A DNA stretch of 64,000 nucleotides from Deltaproteobacteria bacterium. GTDB lineage: Bacteria > Desulfobacterota > Deferrimicrobia > Deferrimicrobiales > Deferrimicrobiaceae. Of the stretch, positions 4,144 through 62,695 are shown in pieces. Below the pieces are notes generated by a model that was not told where the DNA came from, did no database searches, and saw only the letters and a list, made by a program, of their open reading frames with translations. A program made the translations under genes and the position numbers. The stretch covers positions 9,722 to 73,721 of the forward strand of contig JAKALO010000001.1 of the NCBI GenBank assembly GCA_021824125.1, read 5' to 3'. Positions within the stretch are counted from its first letter, which is position 1. Each line of letters begins with the position of its first letter.

Positions 4144-5799
4144 CTACGGAGGGCATGGCTCCGTCGGGGATTTCGCCGCCGTGGACGGTTCCCCCGGCAC
4201 TCCGCCGATCTTGCGGATCGCATCCTCGGCGGCCTTCCGGACCTGGGGGTCCTTGTCGGCCAGGAGGTCACGGAGGGGGCGCATAACGCGGGTGAACCCG
4301 ACCTCCCCCAGCGCGGACGCCGCGCGGGCGCGAACCGCCGGGTTGTCGTCCTGGAGCGAGAGGAGAAGGGGTTCGACGACCACTTCACCCATCTGGGAAA
4401 GGACGAAGCTGGCGACGAAGCCTACCCGCTCGTCGGCCAGTAGGCGGATCAGCGGGTATATGGCCCTCGTGTCCTTGATCTGCCTCATGGTGCACAACGA
4501 GGCGATCCGTGTTCCGATGTCCTCCTCCTTGTTAAGGGTTTCAAGGCACCCCTCGAGCACCCGGTCACCCATCCCCTCGAGCACGTACTGCTTCCAGTAG
4601 TCGAGCTCCGGATCGTTGCTTCTGCGCAGCAGGGGGCGGAGGTTCGCGTCCCCGAACTGCCGGAGCGCCATGATGCATAGCCACCTGATCTCCGGGTCTC
4701 CGAGCCCGTTGACCAGTCCTTCGACCGACGCCGGGTCCGCGATCGCCATAAGGGCGGCGACCGTGGAGACCTTGACATCCGGGGAAGGGTCACGCAGCAC
4801 CTCGAGGAGAATGGGCATCGCCGCGCGGTATTTGCTCTTCCGGATCGACGTCGCGGCGCCGATCTTCTGCAGGACGTTCCCGCCGCGAAGCATCCGGAAG
4901 AGGATCGGGCGGCCCGCGTCGGGCATCCGCGCGAAGGCCTCTGTGGCCGCCTCGCGGACATTCGGATCGTTGTCGTCCAGGTAGGAGGCCACGTCCTCAA
5001 GTATGGACGGGTCCGCCGTCTCCCCCAGGGTAAGGCAGGCGTAATACCGCACCAGCGGTGAAGGGTCGGAAAGGATCTTGCGAAGGTAGAGCAGCGTTTC
5101 CCTGGTGCCCATGGCCCCCAGGGCGCGGATCGCCCCGACCCGTATGTCGACGTTCCCGTAGGAAAGGAGGGAGGTCAGGGCCGCGGTCGCGTCCTCCCCG
5201 AACTTGGGCAGGGACTCGATCGCCGCGTCGCGGACCGACGGGTAGACGCTGTCGACTTTCGCCATGACCAGCCGCAGCCCCCCCTCGCCCCCGAACTGGG
5301 CGACGGTCTGGATCGCCTGGACCTGGACCGACGGGTCCGAATCGTTGAGCGCGGCCTGGATGGATGGGGCAGCGGCCCGGGCGTCGAGCTGCCTCAGGAT
5401 GAAGAGGGCGTTCCGGCGGACGACCGGATTATTATGCTTCAGGGCAAGCACGGTCTTTCGGACGGATTCGTTGCCTATATTGATGAGCGCGCCGCTCGCG
5501 AGCCATCGAACCTCCTCGCTGTCGAGCGCCCCTATCAGCGTGTCCACCGATGCGGGGCCGAGGTCCACGAGGCGTTTCATGGCGTGGCTTCGAACGGCCA
5601 GGTCCCGGTCCTTCAGGAACGGCAGTATCTCCTTCGCCGCCTCCGTGCCCCCCTTGTCGAAGAGCACGTCGATCGCCTGCGTTTTCTCCTTCTGTGCGTC
5701 CTCCATCGGGATTTCCGCGCGCAGAATCGTGGAAGCCGAAAACAGGGACAGAAATAACACAAGCGGGAACGACAGGTGCAATCGGGCGCTTCGGTACAA
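4144..5799 (-). CDS. Secreted HEAT-repeat (PBS lyase HEAT-like) protein
   Basis: 551-aa ORF with an N-terminal signal peptide (LSFPLVLFLSLFSASTILRA). It contains more than ten repeats of the DPxxxVRxxAxxALG type typical of HEAT/PBS-lyase repeats. Confidence 0.7.
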   Translation of the reverse strand: MYRSARLHLSFPLVLFLSLFSASTILRAEIPMEDAQKEKTQAIDVLFDKGGTEAAKEILPFLKDRDLAVRSHAMKRLVDLGPASVDTLIGALDSEEVRWLASGALINIGNESVRKTVLALKHNNPVVRRNALFILRQLDARAAAPSIQAALNDSDPSVQVQAIQTVAQFGGEGGLRLVMAKVDSVYPSVRDAAIESLPKFGEDATAALTSLLSYGNVDIRVGAIRALGAMGTRETLLYLRKILSDPSPLVRYYACLTLGETADPSILEDVASYLDDNDPNVREAATEAFARMPDAGRPILFRMLRGGNVLQKIGAATSIRKSKYRAAMPILLEVLRDPSPDVKVSTVAALMAIADPASVEGLVNGLGDPEIRWLCIMALRQFGDANLRPLLRRSNDPELDYWKQYVLEGMGDRVLEGCLETLNKEEDIGTRIASLCTMRQIKDTRAIYPLIRLLADERVGFVASFVLSQMGEVVVEPLLLSLQDDNPAVRARAASALGEVGFTRVMRPLRDLLADKDPQVRKAAEDAIRKIGGVPGEPSTAAKSPTEPCPP

Positions 5800-5871
5800 G
5801 AAACCCTCCCGTCGTGAAGTCGTCTTACTGTATCTTTTTTATACACGCCAGGCAATTCATCCCGGGAACCC

Positions 5872-5911
5872 GGTCATGGATTTGGGCCCATGACCCGTAA
5901 ACCTGTACAAT
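5872..5911 (+). promoter_or_regulatory. Putative operator palindrome GGTCATGG-N8-CCATGACC overlapping a candidate sigma70 promoter (-10 TACAAT at 5906-5911) upstream of the DUF2064 gene
   Basis: Perfect 8-bp inverted repeat at 5872-5879 / 5888-5895, about 60 bp upstream of the ATG at 5952. A TACAAT hexamer lies 17 bp downstream of a weak TTGGGC. Confidence 0.3.
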
Positions 5912-5951
5912 GGAAGCGGAATAACCTTGGCCACCGCGGGGAAACCACGTA

Positions 5952-6773
5952 ATGGAACGCCTCGACACCTTGATCCTCTTCGGGAAAGCCCCCGTTCCCG
6001 GAACGGTAAAGACCAGGCTTTGCCCCCCTTTGTCGCCACGGGAAGCGGCCGGGCTTTACTCCTGCCTCCTGGAAGACGCCGCGGAAGAAGCCGGAAGACT
6101 CCGGGGGGTCCGCCGTTACATCTTCTTTGCCCCCCCGGAAGGCGAAGCCTACTTCCGCGCGGGAACATTCTCCGCCTTTCACATTCGTCCGCAGGCCGGG
6201 TCGGATCTCGGGGAACGGATGGAGAGGGCCACGCTGGCGGCGTTCGCCGGCGGGGCGCGCAGAGTGGTGGTCATCGGCGCCGATTGCCCCGCGCTGTCCG
6301 GAGGTATCATCCGTTCAGCCTTCCGTGAACTGTCGAACGCCGCCGGGGCGGTGTTCGGCCCCGCCGAGGACGGGGGGTACTACCTCGTCGGCCTTGGCGA
6401 GCCCGCCCCTTTCCTGTTCCGGGGAATCGAGTGGGGCTCCCCAACGGTTCTTGCGACATCCCTCTCGCGATGCCGGGATGCCGGGATCCCTTACGCCCTG
6501 CTGCCCGGCAAATCCGATGTGGACACCGCGGAGGACCTGGTGTCGCTCAGACGCTGGGCCCGCGCCCACGCCCGGCCCCCCTGCCCCCGGACGCGGTCAT
6601 GGCTTAAGAACTTCCTTCCGGCGATCACCTGCTCCGGGAGCGCGGTCTCGTTGCCGCGCCCGGACGAATCAGGGTCCGCCCCATCCCCAGGTCGACGATC
6701 TCGCTCCGCAGGATCACCTCCTTCAACCCTTTGCGTGGGACCTCGATCCCGAAGCTTCCGGTTTCCCCGTTGA
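5952..6773 (+). CDS. DUF2064 family protein (2-phospho-L-lactate guanylyltransferase-like fold)
   Basis: ATG at 5952 (MERLDTLILFGKAPVPGTVKTRL...VVVIGADCP...DGGYYLVGL...DVDTAEDL). The last ~60 aa are low-complexity and overlap the convergent gene at 6625-7305 by 149 bp. The true C-terminus may be affected by a frameshift. Confidence 0.65.
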   Translation: MERLDTLILFGKAPVPGTVKTRLCPPLSPREAAGLYSCLLEDAAEEAGRLRGVRRYIFFAPPEGEAYFRAGTFSAFHIRPQAGSDLGERMERATLAAFAGGARRVVVIGADCPALSGGIIRSAFRELSNAAGAVFGPAEDGGYYLVGLGEPAPFLFRGIEWGSPTVLATSLSRCRDAGIPYALLPGKSDVDTAEDLVSLRRWARAHARPPCPRTRSWLKNFLPAITCSGSAVSLPRPDESGSAPSPGRRSRSAGSPPSTLCVGPRSRSFRFPR

Positions 6774-7321: not shown

Positions 7322-8848
7322 TCATTGGGCCCGCTTCCTTCCCTCCTGCGACAGGAACTCGACGATGAGCCGCACCGGGGCGCCGGTAGGGCCCGGGGCG
7401 TACCCCATCCTTTCCTTCTCACGCCACGCAACGCCGGCGATGTCCAGGTGAACCCAGGGGGTGTCTCCGGCGAACTCCTTCAGAAAACAGGCGGCGGTGA
7501 TCGTGCCCGCCTCCGGTCCGCCGATATTCTTGAGGTCACCGATTTCGCTTTTGATCTGCTCGAAATACTCCTCGTGGAGCGGCAGCTCCCAGGCCTTCTC
7601 GCCGGACACCCCGGACGCCTCCTTAATCATGGAGAGAAGCTTTCCGTCGTTCCCGATCATGCCCATCGTCACGCTTCCCAACGCCACGACGCACGCACCG
7701 GTAAGCGTCGCCGCGTCGACCATCGCGGCCGGGCGGTACCGCTTCTTCGCCCAGGCCATGGCGTCCGCAAGGATGAGCCTCCCTTCCGCGTCCGTGGAGA
7801 GCACCTCGACCGTTTTCCCCGACATCATCCGGATGACGTCACCCGGCCGGTAGGCGGCGCCGGAAGGCATGTTCTCCACCGCCGGCACCACGGCGACGAC
7901 GTTTACCGGTATCCCGACTGCGGCGGCGGCGCGGACCGCGCCCAGCATCCCCGCCCCCCCGGCCATGTCGTACTTCATCTTTTCCATCCCCTCCCACTTC
8001 TTCAGGGAGATTCCGCCCGTATCGAATGTGACCCCCTTACCGACAAGCGCCGTCCAGGGCCCCCCGGGACGCCCACCGCGGAACTCCGCGACGATGAGTC
8101 GCGGGGGAGCATCGCTCCCCTTGCCGACAGCCAGGATCCCGCCCATACCCCACGCCTCGATCTCCTTTTTCCCGAACACCCGGACGCGGATCTTTTTCGC
8201 CGCAGCGGTACCAAGCCCTTTCGCCAGCGCCTTGGCGGCGCGGGCCAGCCCGTCAGGCCGCAGATCCCCGGGCGGAGAGGAAACAAGGTTCCGCGCCCAG
8301 TTGACCGCCTCTCCGACGCGGGCGCCATATTCAAGCCCTTTCCTGATGGGGGATGCGAGCAACCGGTTGTTCTCGACCAGCCGGAACCGCCCCACCCGGT
8401 TCTCCTTCTCCGACTTGTAGCGGTCGTACTCGTAATTGGACAGCGCCGCGCCGAGCGCGGCGAACCGCGCAGCGGCCTCCGGGTCCAAACCTCCGATCCC
8501 GGCGCCGTGAAGCACCGAAGCCACGGTCGCAAGCTTCAGCTTCCTCGCCAGCCGCACCACCGGAAGCGCGGCCTGCCGGACCAGGTCCAGTGAGAACTTT
8601 TCCTTTTTCCCGAGACCGAGGACCAGCACGCGGGGCGAGGCGACCCCCTTCACGGGGCGCAGGAGAAGCGTCTCCCCCCATTTACCCTGAAAGTCGCCGT
8701 CCCGTATCGCCGCGGTAATCGCGCCCTCGAGCGCCGCGTCCACCGCGCCGGTCGCGCCACCCGGTCTCTTCACTCCCTCGAAGAGGTTCACCACCACCAT
8801 ATCGGCCTTGTGCCGGACGATGTCCCCCATGACCAGTTCTATCTTCAA
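7322..8848 (-). CDS. pepA: Leucyl aminopeptidase (M17 family)
   Basis: M17 signature region (NTDAEGRL, VGKGVTFDTGG). The likely start is TTG at 8848 (MKIELVMGDIV...) with GGGAG upstream. The ORF track extends it to 8914. Confidence 0.85.
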   Translation of the reverse strand: MKIELVMGDIVRHKADMVVVNLFEGVKRPGGATGAVDAALEGAITAAIRDGDFQGKWGETLLLRPVKGVASPRVLVLGLGKKEKFSLDLVRQAALPVVRLARKLKLATVASVLHGAGIGGLDPEAAARFAALGAALSNYEYDRYKSEKENRVGRFRLVENNRLLASPIRKGLEYGARVGEAVNWARNLVSSPPGDLRPDGLARAAKALAKGLGTAAAKKIRVRVFGKKEIEAWGMGGILAVGKGSDAPPRLIVAEFRGGRPGGPWTALVGKGVTFDTGGISLKKWEGMEKMKYDMAGGAGMLGAVRAAAAVGIPVNVVAVVPAVENMPSGAAYRPGDVIRMMSGKTVEVLSTDAEGRLILADAMAWAKKRYRPAAMVDAATLTGACVVALGSVTMGMIGNDGKLLSMIKEASGVSGEKAWELPLHEEYFEQIKSEIGDLKNIGGPEAGTITAACFLKEFAGDTPWVHLDIAGVAWREKERMGYAPGPTGAPVRLIVEFLSQEGRKRAQ

Positions 8849-8942
8849 TTTACACGCTCCCGTCCGCGACGATGCGCCTCCCTGCAAATTATGGGGCCAA
8901 CGGATGGTTGTCAAGGATAGATGAAGAGGAAATCACGGACGG

Positions 8943-9156
8943 AGCGGCGCTCGAATGCCGCCGGATTTACCTGCCCGGGGCTCTGAGGAATCCATCGCGG
9001 AAATACGGCGAGCACCGAGAGCGCCGATGCGCCGCGACAGCGAGGCGCGCGACTGAGGCGTACTGCCTGTACGCCGCAAGGAGCGCAACGAAGCTGTAGC
9101 GGATGCAGCGGCGCTCGAATGCCGCCGGATTTACGGGATGGGTTCCTCAGAGCCCC
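8943..9156. repeat. Intergenic structured repeat element: two perfect 28-bp direct repeats (8943-8970, 9107-9134), each followed by one arm of a 14-bp inverted repeat (8977-8990 / 9143-9156)
   Basis: AGCGGCGCTCGAATGCCGCCGGATTTAC occurs twice, 164 bp apart. GGGGCTCTGAGGAA and TTCCTCAGAGCCCC are exact reverse complements. The interior carries further hairpins (GGCGTAC...GTACGCC). A related motif ATGCCCGCCGGATTTAC occurs at 673-689. Confidence 0.6.
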
Positions 9157-9851
9157 AGGTAGGCTTCCTTGACGTGGGGGTCGGCCAGGAGCTCCTTCCC
9201 CGTACCCTGGAGGACGACGCTGCCGTTTTCCAGGACATAGGCGCGGTCGCAGAGCGCAAGCGTCTGCCGAACGTTCTGCTCGACGAGGAGGACGGTCACC
9301 CCCTCCTTGTTGATCCGCTTGACGATGTTGAAGACGTCCTCGACGAGGATAGGGGCCAGCCCGAGGGACGGCTCGTCGAACATGAGCAACCTGGGCAATG
9401 CCATAAGCCCTCGCCCGATCGCGCACATCTGCTGCTCACCGCCGCTCAAAGTCCCCGCCGCCTGCTTCCTCCGTTCCTTCATCCTCGGGAAGAGTTCGTA
9501 GACCCACGCCAGGGTTTCCCTCCGCTTCTTTCTTGCCTCGGGGGCCAGGGACCCCATGACCATGTTCTCCTCGACGGACATCTCGCGGAATAGACGCCTC
9601 GCCTCCGGGACATGGACAACCCCGTGACCGATGATCCGGTCGGCGGGCAACCGGTCCAGCCGGACGCCGTCGAAAACGATCGTTCCGGCCTTCGGCCGCA
9701 GGAGCCCCGAGATGGTCTTCAAGGTGGTCGACTTCCCGGCCCCGTTTGCGCCCACGAGCACCACGATCTCCTTTTCGCGCACCTCGAAGGAGGAGCCCCA
9801 GAGCACCTGGAGGTCGCCGTAGAAGACGTCGATGGCGTCGACCTTAAGCAT
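9147..9851 (-). CDS. livF: Branched-chain amino acid ABC transporter ATP-binding protein
   Basis: 234-aa ABC ATPase (GANGAGKST, LSGGEQQM) and the last gene of the liv operon. Its stop codon lies inside the right inverted-repeat arm of the element above. Confidence 0.9.
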   Translation of the reverse strand: MLKVDAIDVFYGDLQVLWGSSFEVREKEIVVLVGANGAGKSTTLKTISGLLRPKAGTIVFDGVRLDRLPADRIIGHGVVHVPEARRLFREMSVEENMVMGSLAPEARKKRRETLAWVYELFPRMKERRKQAAGTLSGGEQQMCAIGRGLMALPRLLMFDEPSLGLAPILVEDVFNIVKRINKEGVTVLLVEQNVRQTLALCDRAYVLENGSVVLQGTGKELLADPHVKEAYLGL

Positions 9852-43214: not shown

Positions 43215-46200
43215 TTGAAGGCCGCCTGGCTGCGCACGATCACCGGGGCTCTGCTTGTCGCATCCCTGCTCCCGTGCGCGGGGGCGGCGGGCGGGGATTC
43301 GCCGGGGAGATTGCGGGCTGATTCACCCGAGGCGTTACTCGAACGCGGAATGCCGCTTCCCGCAAGCCGCGAGTTCCTCGTCCTCCCCCCCCCGTCGCGC
43401 GCGAAGTCCCCCCTCCTCCCGGAACTCATGCGACGCCTGTCCAGAGCCGGTTACGACAACGTCGCCCTTTCCCTGTTCGAGGAGACCGGCCCTCATCTTG
43501 CCGAACCTGTCCGTTCGGAGGCGTGCCTCGAAGCAGGCAGAATCCTCTGGCAACTCAAGGAATACGGGAAAGCGTCCGATGCGTTCCGAAAGGTATCCCG
43601 GAAGTCCGGGGCCGCACCCCTGGCCGCCTTCTACCAGGCGAGGCTCCTCGCCGCGGCGGGGAAAGCTCCCGCGGCGCTGCAGGCGCTGTCCGCCGCGCCG
43701 CAGGGCGGCAAAAGAAGCCTGCTCGAGGGCGAGATCGAGATGGCCAGGCAGAACCCCGGCGCTGCCCTGGCGGCCTGGGCCGGCGCGCCGTCCGGAACGG
43801 ACGCGGGATTCCTGGCGAGGCTCCTTTCGCTGTCCCGCGTGGAAAGCGGGGAAGGGATTCGGGAGCTCAAGGCCATCGCAGACAACGCGTCGACGGGGTC
43901 GTTCCCCCGGCAGGCGGCCGCCCGGAAGGCCCTCGCGTCCGCTCTCCTGGGAAGGAAGGATTACGACGGCATGTTGTCCACCGCGCTGAAAGCGCTCGAA
44001 ACCGCCGGGCGCTGGAAGACCGCCGCCGGAAAACCGCTCCAATGGGACGGGACGAGGGAAGGCGCGGCGCGATCGTGGAGATATCTTGCCTCCCTCTTTC
44101 CGTACGACGAGGATGCGCAGAAATTCCTGGCCGTCGGACACCGCTTCTTCGCCGCGACCGCCCTGTACGAAGGGTTGCAAGCCACGGAGGCGGACAGCCG
44201 GGATTTCACCCGCCGCCTGGCAGCCGCGATCGAAAGGGTCTCCCTCGAAGAGAAGGCCGTCGCCGTAAAGCGTTCGCGCGCGGAGGAAATCCGGAAGGAA
44301 ATGCTCGCACGTCGGCGTAAAGCGGTGGAGATGCGGGACCGGCTCCGGAACGCGGCCGGGTCCCTGGGGGTCGAAGCCTGGGGAAGCAGGACCGACCCTC
44401 GAAGAGCCGCCCTTATAGGAGAAACGGGCAGGAAGCTCGCGGCCTTCCGGGACCGCCTGGCCCGCGTTCGCGGGGCCGCGGCGGCGGCGACGGCGAGGGC
44501 TCGCGCGGAGTCCCTTCCGCCGGAAGACCTGAGGATGCTCTTCTACTCACAGGAGCAGGTCGCGAAGCTGGGGGACAGGCTTGACGCTCTCGAGGGGAAA
44601 ACCGCGTTCCTGCGCGTGATCATATGGAACCGCTGGAAATCGGAGTACGTGACACGTCTGTCCGTCCTTCTCGGCAAGGCGGAAGAAACCGCCAGGGCCC
44701 TCGGCGAGGCGGCCGACAGGGCGGGCAAGGCCGTTCCCCCGCTCCACGCGGAGCAGGACAACCTTCTGGCCTGGAAGAAATCGCTGGACCTGTTCCGGAA
44801 AAAGATCGTTTCCGGCGACGCGATCCTTGAAAGAGGGAAGGCGGCGGCGAAGGCCCGGGCGTTGGGCTCCCTTGCGGAGTCCGGACGGGAACTCCTCTAC
44901 GGGATATCCCGGGAAGAGCGCGGGATAAGGTATTTTGCCGCCCGGGCGTCCACCGAATGGCGGATCGAGGATTCGGAAAGGCAGCCTGGCGCCAAAGCGC
45001 TTCCCCCCCCGCGGCGCGCGGAACTGGGAAAGGAGGCGATCCGGCACTGGGAGGCGATCCTCCCTCCCCCGGGAGACCGCGACGATCCCGCCGACGAGAT
45101 CCTGTACGCGTTGGCGGAGCTGAGATTCGAGCAGGAGGAAGCCAGGTTTTTACAAAAGGAGGAAGCAGGCAGTCAGCCCCCCGATTACTCGGCACCCCGG
45201 GCCTTGTTCCGCAGGGTGATCGAAGAGTTCCCGGGAAGCCCCTACACCGAGCATGCGCTATACGGGCTCGCGCTTTCCTGGCAGGAGGAGGGCGCCGTGG
45301 ACAACGCCACCGCCGCCATGAAGGGACTTCTCGCCAGGTTCCCCGGAACCCGCTACGCCGACGAGATCCATCTTCGCCTCGGCGAGTACGCGTTCGACGA
45401 ATACGAGTTCGGGAGGGCCGAGGAGTTCTACCGGAAGGTATCCCGGGAAGCACCCCCCGAGATCCGCGTAACCGCCCTCTTCAAGCTCGGGTGGTCGCTG
45501 TTCCTCCAGGGAAGGCCCGGGGAAGCGGTGGACCCCTTCCTCGCAGGCCTCCTGCTTTCCCCCGCCGCACGGAAAACGGGGGGTGTTCCCCGGGAAGCGC
45601 TCGCCATGCTGGCCCGCTCCCTTGTCGAAGCCGGCATGGAGAAGGAAACGGAAACGCTCCTTGCGCGGCGGGACGCCTCCGGGCATGGACCGGCCGTGCT
45701 CATTGAGATCCAGCGCATCCTTGACGGCCAGAACCGGTACGACGAGGCGACGGCGTTCGCCGACCGGCTCGGAAGCGCGTACCCCTACGCGGCGGAGCGA
45801 CTGGACGCCGAACTCGTCGCGGCGGAAGCGCTCCGGAAAACGGGGAAGGACGACGAGAGCCACGCGCGGCGGGGAAATTTCCACAAGGTCTTCGGGCCCC
45901 GAAGCGCATGGCAGAAATCTTCCGCGAGGAGTCCCGTGGAATCGGCGCGGGCCAACACGGTTTCCGAGGAGGGACTGCGAAGCTCCGCCTTTTACTTCCA
46001 TGCCCGCTCGCGGCAGTCCCCGCCGGGGGACCGTGGGACGATCCTTGGTCTTTATGATGCCCACCTTTCGCTTTTCCCCTCCTCCCCCATGACCGGGGAA
46101 ATCGCTTACCAGCGGGCATGGCTGCTTTTCGAGGACGGGAAAAAAGGCGAGGCGAAAACGGCCTTCGAAGCCGTTGCGCTTCTGCCGGGGGGAACCCGGG

Positions 46201-50003: not shown

Positions 50004-51184
50004 CCGCCAGCGTGGAAAAGATCCGGGTCTACACCTGGTTTCCTGCCCTGGTCGTCCTTGCGGCCTTGTGTGCCGCGGACTTCCCCGCCCACGCCGCCGA
50101 TAAGCAGCGACCCGGCCGGAGCCGGAAGTCCCGGAAGGCCCCGCCAAGACCCGCGGTCGGGGGGGTGGCGGACTATTTCTTCGAGGACGCACCTCTCCCC
50201 GACTCCGTGACAGGGGTTCCGCCGGTCGAGGCGTCCGTGAGCGACGTGGATCAAGCACGCCCGTCCCCGGGCGGGCCGGTTCCGCCCCCTGCCTGCGACC
50301 GTACGCCGAATCCGTGCGAGCGCCTCTCGTGGGTCGAGCAGGTGATGTCGATCCGCGACCGGAAGGCGATCCCGCACCTCCGGGCGATGGCCGTCGACGA
50401 CGCCCACGAGCGCGTCCGTGAAAGGAGTCTGGGCGCCCTGGTGATCCTCGGGGACACCGGTGCGGCGCCTCTCTTCCTCGGCCGCCTCTCGGGCGACCCT
50501 TCCCCGGCGGTCAGGCGGGCCGCGGCCGAGGGGATCGGCCTGCTGAGGATACCCGTCCCCCCGGACAGCCTGGCGGAGCCGCTGATCAAGGATTCGAATC
50601 CGCTTGTCCGCGCCGAATGCGCCCGCGCGATCGGCCGGTCGGCCTTCGTCCAGGCGGGACCGGCACTCATGGTCGCCATCCTGAAGGACCCCTCCCCGGA
50701 AGTCCGGGCCCTCTCCGCAGAGGCGCTCGCCGGCATGAAGACCCCGTGGGGGACTGAAGCGCTGAAGCAGGCGGCGCGGGACGAGGACCCGATCGTACGC
50801 CTCTACGTCCTCCGGGGGCTCGTGGAATTCTCCCCGACCGCCGCCGGACCGCTGTTCAAGGAAGTGTGGGACACCACGAGCGACCCCGAGCTGCGCATCG
50901 AGGCCTTTCGCGGGCTCCTTCGCTCCGGGGAGGGGAAGAAGTGGAGCGAGTCCGGTCTCTCCGACAGCGATGCGCGGATCCGCTTCCTAGCCCTGCGGGA
51001 GTGGCTTTCAAACCTTAACTTCGATCCCCGGAATCCCTACACCCGCAACAACAACTTCCTCCCGCGGATCGAGCCGTTTCTCGCGGACTCCTCGCGGGGG
51101 ATCCGCGAACTCGCGAAGGGGTATCTCGAGAACCTGGGGTTCACGGTCCGCCAGTCCGGGTTCGTCTACATCCTCCAGAAGTAA
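50000..51184 (+). CDS. Secreted HEAT-repeat protein
   Basis: 394 aa, GTG start overlapping the upstream stop, signal peptide, multiple PBS-lyase HEAT-like repeats. Confidence 0.65.
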   Translation: MTASVEKIRVYTWFPALVVLAALCAADFPAHAADKQRPGRSRKSRKAPPRPAVGGVADYFFEDAPLPDSVTGVPPVEASVSDVDQARPSPGGPVPPPACDRTPNPCERLSWVEQVMSIRDRKAIPHLRAMAVDDAHERVRERSLGALVILGDTGAAPLFLGRLSGDPSPAVRRAAAEGIGLLRIPVPPDSLAEPLIKDSNPLVRAECARAIGRSAFVQAGPALMVAILKDPSPEVRALSAEALAGMKTPWGTEALKQAARDEDPIVRLYVLRGLVEFSPTAAGPLFKEVWDTTSDPELRIEAFRGLLRSGEGKKWSESGLSDSDARIRFLALREWLSNLNFDPRNPYTRNNNFLPRIEPFLADSSRGIRELAKGYLENLGFTVRQSGFVYILQK

Positions 51185-51223
51185 ACAAGTGCCACCCGTT
51201 ATTGGACCGGATATCGGTCCCAA

Positions 51224-51401
51224 GCCCGCATTTCTCACCGGACTCCGTAGCGAGGCGGTGGAGACGGGCGTGGATACAAGGCGCACGAACTTCGGGCGAC
51301 GCAGGCGTAGTTGAAACTACGTCGAGGAGAACGAAGGAGTGCAACGCAGTAGACATGCCCGTATCCGCCGCCGCAGCAGGAGGCTGGTGAGAAATGCGGG
51401 C
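51224..51401. ncRNA. Candidate structured small RNA (6S-like size) or MITE-like element closed by an 18-bp stem
   Basis: GCCCGCATTTCTCACCGG (51224-51241) pairs with CTGGTGAGAAATGCGGGC (51384-51401): 17 Watson-Crick pairs plus one G.U. The enclosed 142 nt contain internal hairpins. Lies between the HEAT-protein stop and comM. Confidence 0.25.
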
Positions 51402-51542
51402 TAGGTATCCGTCCAGGTTTGAGCGGCATACGGGAGCGCCCTGCCGGACCTTATCCGGATGGTCCCGGCGCACGGTACGCTCCTTGCTGCCCTTTCCCCT
51501 GCGACCAGGCCGTTTCCGGCCAATCTTTCGCGGAAGGGCCCC

Positions 51543-61415: not shown

Positions 61416-62219
61416 ATGGTCCGCCCGTTCAAGGCTGCCGCACTGCAGTTCCGCATCGACATGGGTAACGTTGAAGCGAACACGGCAAGGGCGTTCGCGC
61501 TCCTCGGGGAGGCCGCCGGCAGGGGCGCCTCGCTGTGCGTCCTTCCCGAGATGTGGAGCACCGGGTTCGCCTATGAGCGGCTGCACGCGCTTGCCGGGGC
61601 CACCCCGAAAATCCTTTACGACCTGCGAAAGTTGGCCGCCGAAAAGCGGATCGTGATAGCCGGCTCCCTCCCGGAGCGGGTGGGCAGGGCCGTCTACAAC
61701 ACGCTCCACGTCGTCAACGCGACAGGCGTGATCACGGGCCAATACCGGAAAACGCACCTGTTCCAGCCATCGGAGGAGCACCTCCACTTCCGGAGGGGTA
61801 CTTCCGCCTCCGTGGCGCACACCGACGTCGGGATCCTCGGCCCCCACATCTGCTACGATCTCCGCTTCCCGGAGCTTTCCCGTAAATATTACCTGGAGGG
61901 TGCGACACTGTTCTGCGTCAGCGCGCAGTGGCCCACGGTCCGCAAGGGCCACTGGGAACTGCTGAACGCGGCCCGGGCGGTGGAAAACCAGCTCTTCGTC
62001 GTGGCGGCCAACGCCGTGGGGAAATCGGGTGATTTCCGTTTTTCCGGCGGCTCCCTTATCCTCTCCCCGTGGGGGGAGCGACTCGCCGAGGGAGGGGAGG
62101 AAGAGGGGCTGGCTATGGCGGTGATAGACCCCGCGCAGGCAGCGGAGGCCAGAAGGAGGATCCCGTGCGCGCAGGACCGGAACGAACGCGCCTACCGGAA
62201 GACCCGGAAAAAAAGATAA
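61416..62219 (+). CDS. Carbon-nitrogen hydrolase family protein (nitrilase/amidase superfamily)
   Basis: Catalytic triad context: E in VLPEMW, K in YRKTHLF, C in HICYDLRFPE. Confidence 0.85.
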   Translation: MVRPFKAAALQFRIDMGNVEANTARAFALLGEAAGRGASLCVLPEMWSTGFAYERLHALAGATPKILYDLRKLAAEKRIVIAGSLPERVGRAVYNTLHVVNATGVITGQYRKTHLFQPSEEHLHFRRGTSASVAHTDVGILGPHICYDLRFPELSRKYYLEGATLFCVSAQWPTVRKGHWELLNAARAVENQLFVVAANAVGKSGDFRFSGGSLILSPWGERLAEGGEEEGLAMAVIDPAQAAEARRRIPCAQDRNERAYRKTRKKR

Positions 62220-62695
62220 TCCCCGTCGGCCGGGCCGCCCCCCTTTTCTCCCGCCTGCGGAGGGAAGGGAAGCGGATCGTCTTCACCAACGGGTGCTTCG
62301 ACATCCTGCACGCGGGTCACGCCAAGTACCTCCGGAAGGCGGCGTCGCTTGGCGACGCGCTGATCGTGGGCCTGAACGGCGACGCGTCCGTGCGGAGGCT
62401 CAAGGGCGAGGGGAGGCCCATCCAGGGGGAGGCCGACCGGGCCTACCTGCTTGCGTCGCTCGCCTGCGTCGCCTACGTGGTGATCTTCCGCGAGGACACC
62501 CCTGCCCGGCTGATCGAGCGCGTGGTTCCGCACGTCCTCGTGAAGGGGGGCGACTGGAAAGGCAGGACCATCGTGGGCGCGGACTTCGTGCACGCGCGGG
62601 GGGGCTCCGTGAGGACCGTGCGTTTTCTGGCCGGGAGGTCCACGACCTCCATACTCCGGCGGGCAGCGGGAGCCGGAAGGAATAGCCAATCCTGA
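62165..62695 (+). CDS. D-glycero-beta-D-manno-heptose 1-phosphate adenylyltransferase (RfaE domain II / HldE C-terminal type cytidylyltransferase)
   Basis: VFTNGCFDILHAGHAKYL nucleotidyltransferase motif. GTG start at 62165 is tentative. Confidence 0.75.
   Translation: MRAGPERTRLPEDPEKKIIPVGRAAPLFSRLRREGKRIVFTNGCFDILHAGHAKYLRKAASLGDALIVGLNGDASVRRLKGEGRPIQGEADRAYLLASLACVAYVVIFREDTPARLIERVVPHVLVKGGDWKGRTIVGADFVHARGGSVRTVRFLAGRSTTSILRRAAGAGRNSQS

Follow-up and report, generated by a model that had tools for sequence, protein, structure and literature searches.

In Geobacter metallireducens, 24 elements (Gmet_R1001-R1024) were annotated as predicted short RNAs (Aklujkar et al., 2009, PMC2700814, Additional file 4), and these elements are multicopy, palindromic, and intergenic (PMC2700814). 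Repetitive extragenic palindromic (REP) dimers with conserved spacers of 20-100 nt, as well as tandemly reiterated clusters, have been described (PMC3733652), and Delihas (2007, PMC2759123) presents the enterobacterial repetitive intergenic consensus (ERIC/IRU, RU-1, 127 bp) and YPAL (RU-2, 168 bp) elements as units that resemble MITEs (miniature transposable elements with inverted repeats) and occupy multiple intergenic regions. Here we describe an element, termed E1, located between the livF and pepA genes in a 64,000-nt stretch of DNA from a member of the Deferrimicrobiaceae (GenBank assembly GCA_021824125.1, contig JAKALO010000001.1, positions 9,722-73,721; hereafter the window, to which coordinates refer unless another contig is named). 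The initial annotation of this locus had suspected a repeat family rather than an ordinary spacer. This is borne out by the absence of E1 from the orthologous site in close relatives, by its homologues in other loci and genomes, and by a hairpin whose stems covary among the family members.

Both flanking genes are on the minus strand: livF (9147-9851, Pfam ABC_tran) ends with a stop codon that reads TCA at 9147-9149 in plus-strand letters, and pepA (Peptidase_M17) starts near 8848. The exact 28-mer AGCGGCGCTCGAATGCCGCCGGATTTAC occurs at 8943-8970 and 9107-9134, and an exact 14-nt inverted repeat is formed by GGGGCTCTGAGGAA (8977-8990) and TTCCTCAGAGCCCC (9143-9156), the right arm of which holds the livF stop codon, all as initially annotated. 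The 28-mer extends to a 35-nt direct repeat (8936-8970 and 9100-9134, 33/35 identical, spacing 164), and the 14-nt inverted repeat is the best-matching part of longer arms, 41 nt each and 85% complementary (8970-9010 and 9123-9163). Since the arms can be aligned across about 95 nt (about 80% identity), the whole 8970-9163 region folds as a single long, imperfect hairpin centred near 9066. A family nhmmer profile, built from E1 and two homologues described below (L116 and one unit of the L117 array), matches the segment 8934-8983 with its positions 122-170 (E 2.6e-4), i.e., with its last ~50 positions, and hence the locus contains a complete unit together with the 3' third of another. E1 is about 1.3 tandem units: a ~160-nt palindromic unit (8987-9146) and a partial copy of the 3' end of a second one (8934-8986). 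The 28- and 35-nt direct repeats are seen twice because the 3' end of the unit is tandemly duplicated, the 164-nt spacing being the period of the array. The repeated unit is thus not the 28-mer, as had been assumed, but a hairpin of ~160-175 nt in which the 28-mer is one conserved box.

The segments of E1 follow one another from pepA to livF. The partial upstream unit with its copy of the 3' box, X-a, occupies 8934-8970 on the plus strand (direct-repeat search and profile match). It is followed by the junction segment CCTGCCCGGGGCTCTGA (8970-8986, plus strand), the outermost left arm of the hairpin by inverted-repeat search and arm alignment, which repeats the final ~17 nt of livF in inverted orientation and resembles the junction between units of the L117 array (...CCACGGGGCTCCC followed by GGAGTCC). 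The full unit (8987-9146, plus strand; GGAATCC...GGGTTCC), recognized by homology to the L117 unit and L116 and by the covariance model (CM) R1 of the family, abuts the livF stop codon. Its better-folding strand is the plus strand of the window, antisense to livF and pepA, with minimum free energies (MFE) of -102.5 (+) vs. -88.5 (-) kcal/mol. Within this unit, the segment 8999-9035 (minus strand; arm alignment and inverted repeats) is a degenerate inverted counterpart of the 28-mer box, GGAAATACGGCGAGCACCGAGAGCGCCGATGCGCCGC, containing a conserved box GGCGAGCACCGAGAG identical in L117; it pairs with the second box copy in the long hairpin, X-a being a possible alternative partner. An apical stem-loop, GGCGTAC-TGCCT-GTACGCC (9057-9075, plus strand), found in the folds and as an inverted repeat, has its symmetry centre near 9066. 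The second box copy, X-b (9100-9134, plus strand; GCGGATGCAGCGGCGCTCGAATGCC...), is the 3' box of the full unit and is conserved in L116 and L117 according to the repeat search and the family alignment. The outermost right arm (9147-9163, minus strand) is made of the final five livF codons plus the stop (..Y L G L *), as seen from the ORF, its Pfam ABC_tran match, and the inverted repeat.

Downstream of E1 on the minus strand, a promoter-like box CTTGACAACC is followed after about 15-17 nt by CATAAT/TAATTT (8880-8913). The related string CTTGACAAC is conserved upstream of pepA in six relatives (L006, L007, L008, L035, L036, and L238), and the box together with the downstream AT-rich hexamer is probably the pepA promoter. 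The consensus promoter scan reported no site at this box because of its spacing rule. E1 therefore sits between the end of the liv operon and the putative pepA promoter.

The folding potential of E1 is exceptional within the window. The segment 8900-9170 has an MFE of -144.9 (-) and -157.7 (+) kcal/mol, corresponding to z-scores of -8.8 and -9.8, and none of 200 shuffled sequences was as stable, which places the fold far outside chance expectation. Sliding MFE calculations over the whole 64 kb (200-nt windows) revealed only two outliers, the E1 site (z -6.9) and the segment 51201-51420 (z -6.7), all others being at -3.2 or weaker. The interior of E1, initially described as having additional hairpins, is more than that, namely part of a single long hairpin with z about -9 on both strands. 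Two further inverted repeats were considered and rejected as long hairpins: one at 45441-45595 (z -2.0; a 26-nt repeat, 81% complementary, with a 103-nt gap, inside a 1475-aa ORF resembling tetratricopeptide repeat proteins) and one at 62026-62225 (z -0.6).

Searches for homologues identified four members of the family besides E1, one of them within the window. The genome-wide search for the 28-mer that had initially been proposed yielded no real copies: the pattern of its box (GTAAATCCGGCGGC-N8-GCCGC) gave 22 singleton hits in unrelated taxa among 185,579 species genomes, which is the chance level, and an exact 27-mer had no matches in Joint Genome Institute (JGI) metagenomes. One of the contigs with such a chance match, L029, does bear a genuine family member, at a distance of 1.2 kb from it. 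Homologues were reached instead through spurious ORFs. E1 contains a called 63-aa ORF, whose translation retrieved P0122, a 75-aa ORF on a 1.7-kb JGI contig (L116), and a HMMER search of 1.84 billion representatives retrieved P0123, a 419-aa "protein" consisting of seven repeats of 58 aa (L117). The homologues of the 75-aa ORF are only spurious ORFs in other copies, and no ORF is supported as coding. Another match of the representative search, P0124, is an unrelated SRCR-like repeat protein, and a six-frame concatenated protein query for spurious ORFs in other copies returned nothing.

The element in L116 is a single copy between a SNase-domain gene and a riboflavin synthase-like gene; its ~120-nt core is about 88% identical to E1, as estimated by eye. 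This copy (about 1100-1289) lies inside a larger outer palindrome, ACTCCGGAGGGGGGTCCCC ... GGGGAGCCCCCCTGCGGAGT, at 930-1351 of L116; the whole 422-nt spacer folds at z -6.3, and a string resembling the 28-mer (CAGTAAATCC..CATTCGAAGAGCGCACTCCGG) directly follows the SNase stop codon. The spacer may consist of nested elements. L117 (ENA ERZ25084491, ctg350155) carries 7.0 tandem units of 174 nt that are mutually 99% identical; the array (4990-6206) fills the spacer between an ammonium transporter gene, starting at its TAG stop codon, and a CP_ATPgrasp gene, ending 27 nt before it. The reading frame of the array stays open because 174 is divisible by 3. The profile built from E1, L116, and L117 matches all three at E 1e-31 to 1e-46.

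Scans with CM R1, run with filters off, score E1 at 202 bits (8970-9157) and the members outside the window at 59-192 bits. The second folding outlier of the window proved to be a diverged member, E2, a hairpin of ~210-215 nt at 51207-51412 on the plus strand (50.7 bits, E 3.6e-9, z -12.5; 11.5 bits on the minus strand); taken as 51203-51418, it measures ~215 nt. Its neighbours, both Pfam-supported, are a HEAT-repeat gene that stops at 51184 and a comM/Mg-chelatase-like gene that starts at 51459. The fifth member (L029, 556-739; 58.9 bits) was found between hsp20 and an rlpA-like gene of a Desulfobacteraceae metagenome-assembled genome; its segment 568-626 is repeated at 728-785, giving 1.3 units as in E1. 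The 64-kb window thus holds two members, with the 28-mer box at one locus only. CM R1 found no family member in the 10 kb beyond the window start and, apart from L029, none in about 0.7 Mb of other metagenome contigs. Three patterns searched in viral contigs gave chance matches only, as checked by nhmmer, and blastn against plasmids gave no match.

A related motif copy had initially been reported at 673-689, as the sole evidence given for a family, together with the proposal that the motif always lies at the 3' end of a minus-strand gene; neither holds. The letters are present, with an exact 13-nt match (GTAAATCCGGCGG on the minus strand), but 0.65 occurrences of the 16-mer per window are expected when up to 3 mismatches are allowed, and blastn assigns the match an E of 1.0. 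Since a relative without the element (L005) already reads GTAAATCCGGAAGGCATG at the orthologous gene end, the letters at 673-689 are native to the MshEN/T2SSE ATPase gene and surround its stop codon. The other family members lie between co-directional genes on either strand. The string GTAAATCCGGCGGGCAT at 674-689 overlaps the ATPase stop codon, and in L116 the string GTAAATCC overlaps the SNase stop codon; the recurrence of the motif at stop codons, seen three times, looks like coincidence.

The five members (E1, E2, L116, L117, and L029) were aligned and analyzed for covariation, with slid pairing partners and 500 shuffles as controls. The alignment supports one hairpin of 62 pairs, in which 80.3% of cells are standard pairs vs. 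36-42% in the slid controls. Changes on both sides of a pair were observed in 35 of the 62 pairs vs. 8-13 in the slid controls, and none of the 500 shuffles reached the pairing or covariation values. Entire stems have changed among the members, being AU-rich in L029, and are kept only as pairs. Two unpaired words are conserved, CAAGGCG in the 5' arm, where E1 reads CGAGGCG, and CAACGCAG in the 3' arm, where E1 reads CAACGAAG, and one G-U pair is kept in four of the five members. All five fold better in the same orientation (E1, -140.7 vs. -126.0 kcal/mol; L116, -101.1 vs. -76.9; L117, -104.2 vs. -94.5; E2, -132.9 vs. -107.7; L029, -77.6 vs. -60.5), and unpaired positions on the better-folding strand are purine-rich. 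Relative to both flanking genes, it has sense orientation in L116, L117, L029, and E2, and antisense orientation in E1.

The livF-pepA site was compared among other assemblies and relatives. Contigs bearing livF in ENA ERZ272375xx, GCA_027403915.1, and GCA_027346775.1 carry the identical element, with one single-nucleotide polymorphism in L032. Among the PepA homologues, those with a source name are called Candidatus Deferrimicrobiaceae; the PepA search of metagenomes gave mostly distant homologues. None of the relatives' livF-pepA spacers has similarity to E1, apart from a fragment in L238. In L006 (PepA 89% identical), the spacer holds only the stop codon, 30 nt, and the conserved CTTGACAACC promoter-like box; in L005, 27 nt separate the called livF stop from the pepA start, with no promoter box seen. 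Unrelated spacers were found in L008, L035, and L036, and two genes (radical-SAM and CMD-domain) are inserted on the opposite strand in L007, L033, and L237. In L238 (83% identical), the stop codon is followed by AAAACCCATCCC, GTAAATCCGACGGCATTCGAGCGCCGCT (27/28 matches to the 28-mer), about 28 nt, and then the promoter. The fragment thus comprises only the livF-proximal 12-nt tail and the 28-mer, and a 75-nt stretch is 70/75 identical to the window, vs. 81% identity across the whole livF. It may be a remnant, left by a deletion between the direct repeats, or else a precursor.

Three states of the site are thus seen: empty, fragment-only, and filled. The C-terminus AYLGL* of LivF is present in L006, L007, and L238 and is native in all states of the site, and hence the segment 8970-8986 is an inverted copy of gene sequence, the gene end not being borrowed from the element. 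The livF-pepA spacer is a hot spot in the relatives; unrelated repeated hairpins (GGGGACAT../GGAGTGTCCCC) occur at ~548-800 of L035. Independent assemblies break inside the elements: contig L004 ends within E1 (window ~8998), and contigs L235 and L236 start within E2 (window ~51373). Such breaks are either expected for long palindromes or reflect copy-number variation in the population.

The reading that we prefer, and to which we give about an even chance, is that E1 is a hairpin-based dispersed repeat of the REPIN/MITE kind (REPINs being REP doublets that form hairpins), which amplifies in tandem, is gained and lost at gene ends, and incidentally provides liv transcripts with a very stable 3' hairpin upstream of an independent pepA promoter. 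This reading draws on the anatomy of E1, its gain and loss at the site, the other family members, the conserved structure with its strand asymmetry, the lack of a supported ORF, and the Geobacter precedent. Between the pepA promoter and the livF stop codon, the site would have gained a unit or array, of which one full unit and the 3' third of its neighbour now stand. We infer that the folded single strand in one orientation would be the recognized substrate, with the purine-rich internal loops (CAAGGCG opposite CAACGCAG) and the apical hairpin bound by a trans-acting factor, e.g., a HUH/Y1-type or structure-specific enzyme. Copy number may shift via recombination or slippage between the direct repeats. 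Transcripts of the liv operon would read into a hairpin that starts in the last codons of livF (8970-9163, minus strand, about -126 kcal/mol), and this structure should stop 3' exonucleases and/or reduce read-through into pepA, a gene that would have its own promoter. A role of E1 as a terminator or stability element is plausible.

Several observations weigh against this reading. No target-site duplication was found at E1: the flanks of the unit are inverted (CTCTGA before and TCAGAG after it), not direct, and the 35-nt direct repeat belongs to the unit itself, as judged against the empty L006 site. The outer stems differ completely among the five members, and no related insertion sequence (IS) was found, in contrast to the terminal inverted repeats expected of a MITE. 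No REP-associated tyrosine transposase (RAYT), other transposase, or other trans-acting enzyme was found among the genes listed with Pfam families, which cover ~43 kb of the 64-kb window (~21 kb lying outside the lists) and ~10 kb beyond the window start. The two members of one genome, E1 and E2, share only a distant likeness (alignment z 2.3), whereas an active transposon would be expected to leave near-identical copies. About 128 kb of relatives' DNA from Deferrimicrobiaceae contained no convincing copy; the sole match under E 0.1 (L238, 9877-9999; 19 bits, E 0.017) lies within a called DeoC gene and is probably a false positive. Because E1 has the antisense orientation to its neighbours, the strand present in liv transcripts is the one that folds less favourably. 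On that strand the hairpin is followed by GUAAAUCC and not by a terminator-like U-tract as in an intrinsic terminator, and a scan of 8500-9600 on both strands found no canonical terminator. Finally, conservation is concentrated in unpaired loops while the stems change in a compensatory manner, a pattern that marks functional structured RNAs.

This last point leads to the strongest alternative, a serious rival although in our judgement less likely: a host-functional structured RNA family, i.e., a cis-acting intergenic or 3' untranslated region element (for processing, stabilization, or binding of RNase III or another protein) or an independent small RNA, which acts on the better-folding strand, has been duplicated, and is kept by selection. 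Covariation far above the controls, the persistence of CAAGGCG, CAACGCAG, and the G-U pair while stems change completely (e.g., in the AU-rich L029), and the same favoured strand in all five members and in 22 of the 24 Geobacter elements agree with such a function, as do the sense orientation of four of the five members to both flanking genes and the annotation of the Geobacter relatives as predicted short RNAs by Aklujkar et al. (PMC2700814). On the other hand, E1 is antisense to its neighbours, and the consensus scan found no plus-strand promoter for it. The flanking genes (liv/pepA, HEAT/comM, amt/ATP-grasp, hsp20/rlpA, and SNase/ribE) share no functional theme, the seven 99%-identical tandem copies and the 1.3-unit remnants suggest amplification at the DNA level, and presence varies at one site between close relatives. 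A match to a known RNA family was not obtained: with Rfam 15, the window gave none at the gathering threshold and E1 none at E<=10, and E2, L116, and L029 gave noise only.

A strict REP cluster, or bacterial interspersed mosaic element (BIME), would interpret X-a, the degenerate inverted copy, and X-b as three alternating REP units mobilized by a RAYT (TnpA-REP) encoded elsewhere. Copies of the ~30-nt box do alternate in orientation, carry a small hairpin (GCGGC-N8-GCCGC), and form a joint large stem-loop, in which X-b and the inverted copy at 8999-9035 pair with each other around a ~65-nt centre as in an inverted REP doublet. The extragenic position at an operon end fits as well, as do the spaced dimers and tandem clusters described for REPs (PMC3733652). 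We nevertheless regard this scheme as improbable. Of the tetranucleotides GTAG and CGTC, one of which stands at the foot of the 20-40-nt imperfect palindrome of a REP (PMC3733652), GTAG precedes X-b (9096-9099) only, with GGAG in L116, CAGC in L117, and none at X-a, and no CGTC tag was found. The small hairpin of the box is lost in L117 and weakened in L238, conservation extends over the entire 160-175-nt unit, its "spacer" included, and the 64 kb plus 10 kb hold a single cluster of the box, with no RAYT seen among the listed genes.

Alternatively, the palindrome could act as DNA: nucleoid, topoisomerase, or recombination proteins would attach to its cruciform or hairpin, in the way that gyrase and integration host factor are bound by BIMEs, and the RNA would be irrelevant. 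A long imperfect palindrome between co-directional transcription units, where supercoiling accumulates, would suit this role, and the contig breaks inside E1 and E2 point to structurally awkward DNA, although such breaks are expected for any long palindrome. We consider a DNA site decidedly improbable, as the strand asymmetry and the conserved G-U (G-T) pair favour a single-stranded, strand-specific form, and no protein-binding consensus was identified. Least credible of all is a one-off local event, with neither family nor function, in which the livF 3' end and its downstream hairpin were duplicated in inverted orientation by fold-back or template switch: the left outer arm (8970-8986) does invert native livF codons, L238 has the livF-proximal piece alone, and public scans gave no further 28-mer copies, but the homologues of the ~120-nt core in unrelated loci and organisms (nhmmer E 1e-32 to 1e-45; CM 59-192 bits) essentially refute it for the whole element, and it may explain only the outermost 17 nt and the partial unit.

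At the level of the family, we tentatively propose, with slightly less confidence than for the host-functional RNA, an unnamed and widespread strand-specific structured nucleic acid of Desulfobacterota (Deferrimicrobiaceae, Desulfobacteraceae, and probably Geobacter). It would be a hairpin of ~110-215 nt whose conserved purine-rich internal loop (CAAGGCG opposite CAACGCAG) and apex would form a protein-binding site, and might represent either a new hairpin-mobilized element with its own enzyme or a new class of tandem-amplifying non-coding RNA. What looked like an odd pair of repeats is now a defined family that is missing from Rfam and for which a covariance model and five seed members are available. 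Its elements break metagenomic assemblies, with contigs ending inside E1 and E2, and give rise to spurious ORF calls (63 aa in E1, 75 aa in L116, and the 419-aa "protein" of seven L117 repeats). Being located exactly at gene ends, they can alter mRNA stability or read-through, and their covarying stems, conserved unpaired motifs, and strand preference make it testable whether they are selfish DNA, functional RNA, or both.

With respect to the wider window, the plus-strand GC skew stays at about -0.05 as far as ~40 kb and is about 0 thereafter. Over the initial ~20 kb the listed genes are on the minus strand, and from ~41 kb most are on the plus strand, the stretch between lying outside the gene lists. 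This change may be a replication-related switch.

Several classes of known elements were rejected for E1. A mini-array of the CRISPR type (short palindromic repeats, clustered and regularly interspaced) would have repeats of 24-48 nt, spacers of about the same length, and cas genes or a leader. Here the two 28-nt repeats have 136 nt between them, this interval is palindromic and homologous among loci, and the window contains no other arrays. By inspection of the sequence against the consensus rather than by a dedicated test, integron attC (no R'/R'' GTTRRRY core) and dif/Xer sites (no consensus) were set aside. The same kind of inspection, with no dedicated test, removed 6S RNA and signal recognition particle RNA (no Rfam match and no central bubble), retron msd (no reverse transcriptase gene nearby), and a tRNA-derived att site (8-nt loop, no T-arm).

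Among mobile elements, the family shares with MITEs its short length (160-215 nt), non-coding character, dispersal over five loci, and polymorphism, with empty, fragment-only, and filled states of one site. ERIC and YPAL elements are imperfect palindromes over their whole length that are transcribed into long RNA hairpins and lie near or overlap gene ends; ERIC has conserved termini and a TA target duplication. Reportedly, De Gregorio et al. observed orientation-dependent mRNA effects of elements of this type. As intergenic mobile units of 127-168 bp (PMC2759123), they resemble our family; they differ in being found in other taxa (enterobacteria and yersiniae) and in having no sequence similarity to the family, whose termini vary and show no duplication. 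Palindrome-associated transposable elements (PATEs), which are non-autonomous, derive from IS200/IS605, and transpose as single strands guided by hairpins, resemble the family in that a strand-specific hairpin is the likely recognized form and in lacking terminal inverted repeats and target-site duplications. Unlike them, the family lacks subterminal hairpins at its left and right ends, and neither TnpA nor TnpB is nearby. The 28-mer box ends in TTAC, the target tetranucleotide of IS608, but TTAC is not conserved in L116, L117, and L029.

The REPIN/BIME elements (Bertels and Rainey, 2011, PMC3116915; Di Nocera et al., 2013, PMC3733652) are similarly extragenic, with inverted boxes and a conserved spacer that form one large stem-loop. 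They likewise occur as single units, dimers, and tandem clusters, often at operon ends, without terminal inverted repeats or target-site duplications. REPINs number from tens to thousands of copies per genome; the window contains two family members. The family differs from them by the lack of a conserved GTAG/CGTC tag, a larger unit, a low local density, and its highest conservation being in the internal loops and the "spacer".

The Geobacter elements are annotated at ~113 nt vs. 160-215 nt in our family, and tandem arrays are not mentioned for the Geobacter set. A profile hidden Markov model of the 24 elements did not detect E1, L116, L117, or L029, giving no family member at E<=1 in 2.15 Mb; run against the five elements alone, it found E2 only, and weakly. 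The relation therefore lies at the level of architecture and motifs, i.e., of a superfamily, and is not a demonstrated membership. Both groups are multicopy, intergenic, non-coding, long imperfect hairpins, and 22 of the 24 Geobacter elements fold better as the reverse complement, the same asymmetry as in our family. The Geobacter central palindrome, GRCGTAGC...GCTACGCC, is approached by the E2 apex (GGCGTAG..CTACGTC), in which 24 flanking and stem bases are identical to R1003 and R1010; the apex of these two elements equals CGCAGGCGTAG..CTACGTCGAGGAG of E2 in reverse complement (z 5.5-6.3). E1 and L116 have the apex GGCGTAC..GTACGCC, and L117 and L029 differ from the Geobacter palindrome. R1002 and R1017 contain the same internal-loop words, TCAAGGCGATC...GATCAACGCAGAG, around a 4-bp stem. 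The 24 G. metallireducens elements are the nearest described relatives of the family, which is known only from alignments in the supplements of Geobacter genome papers.

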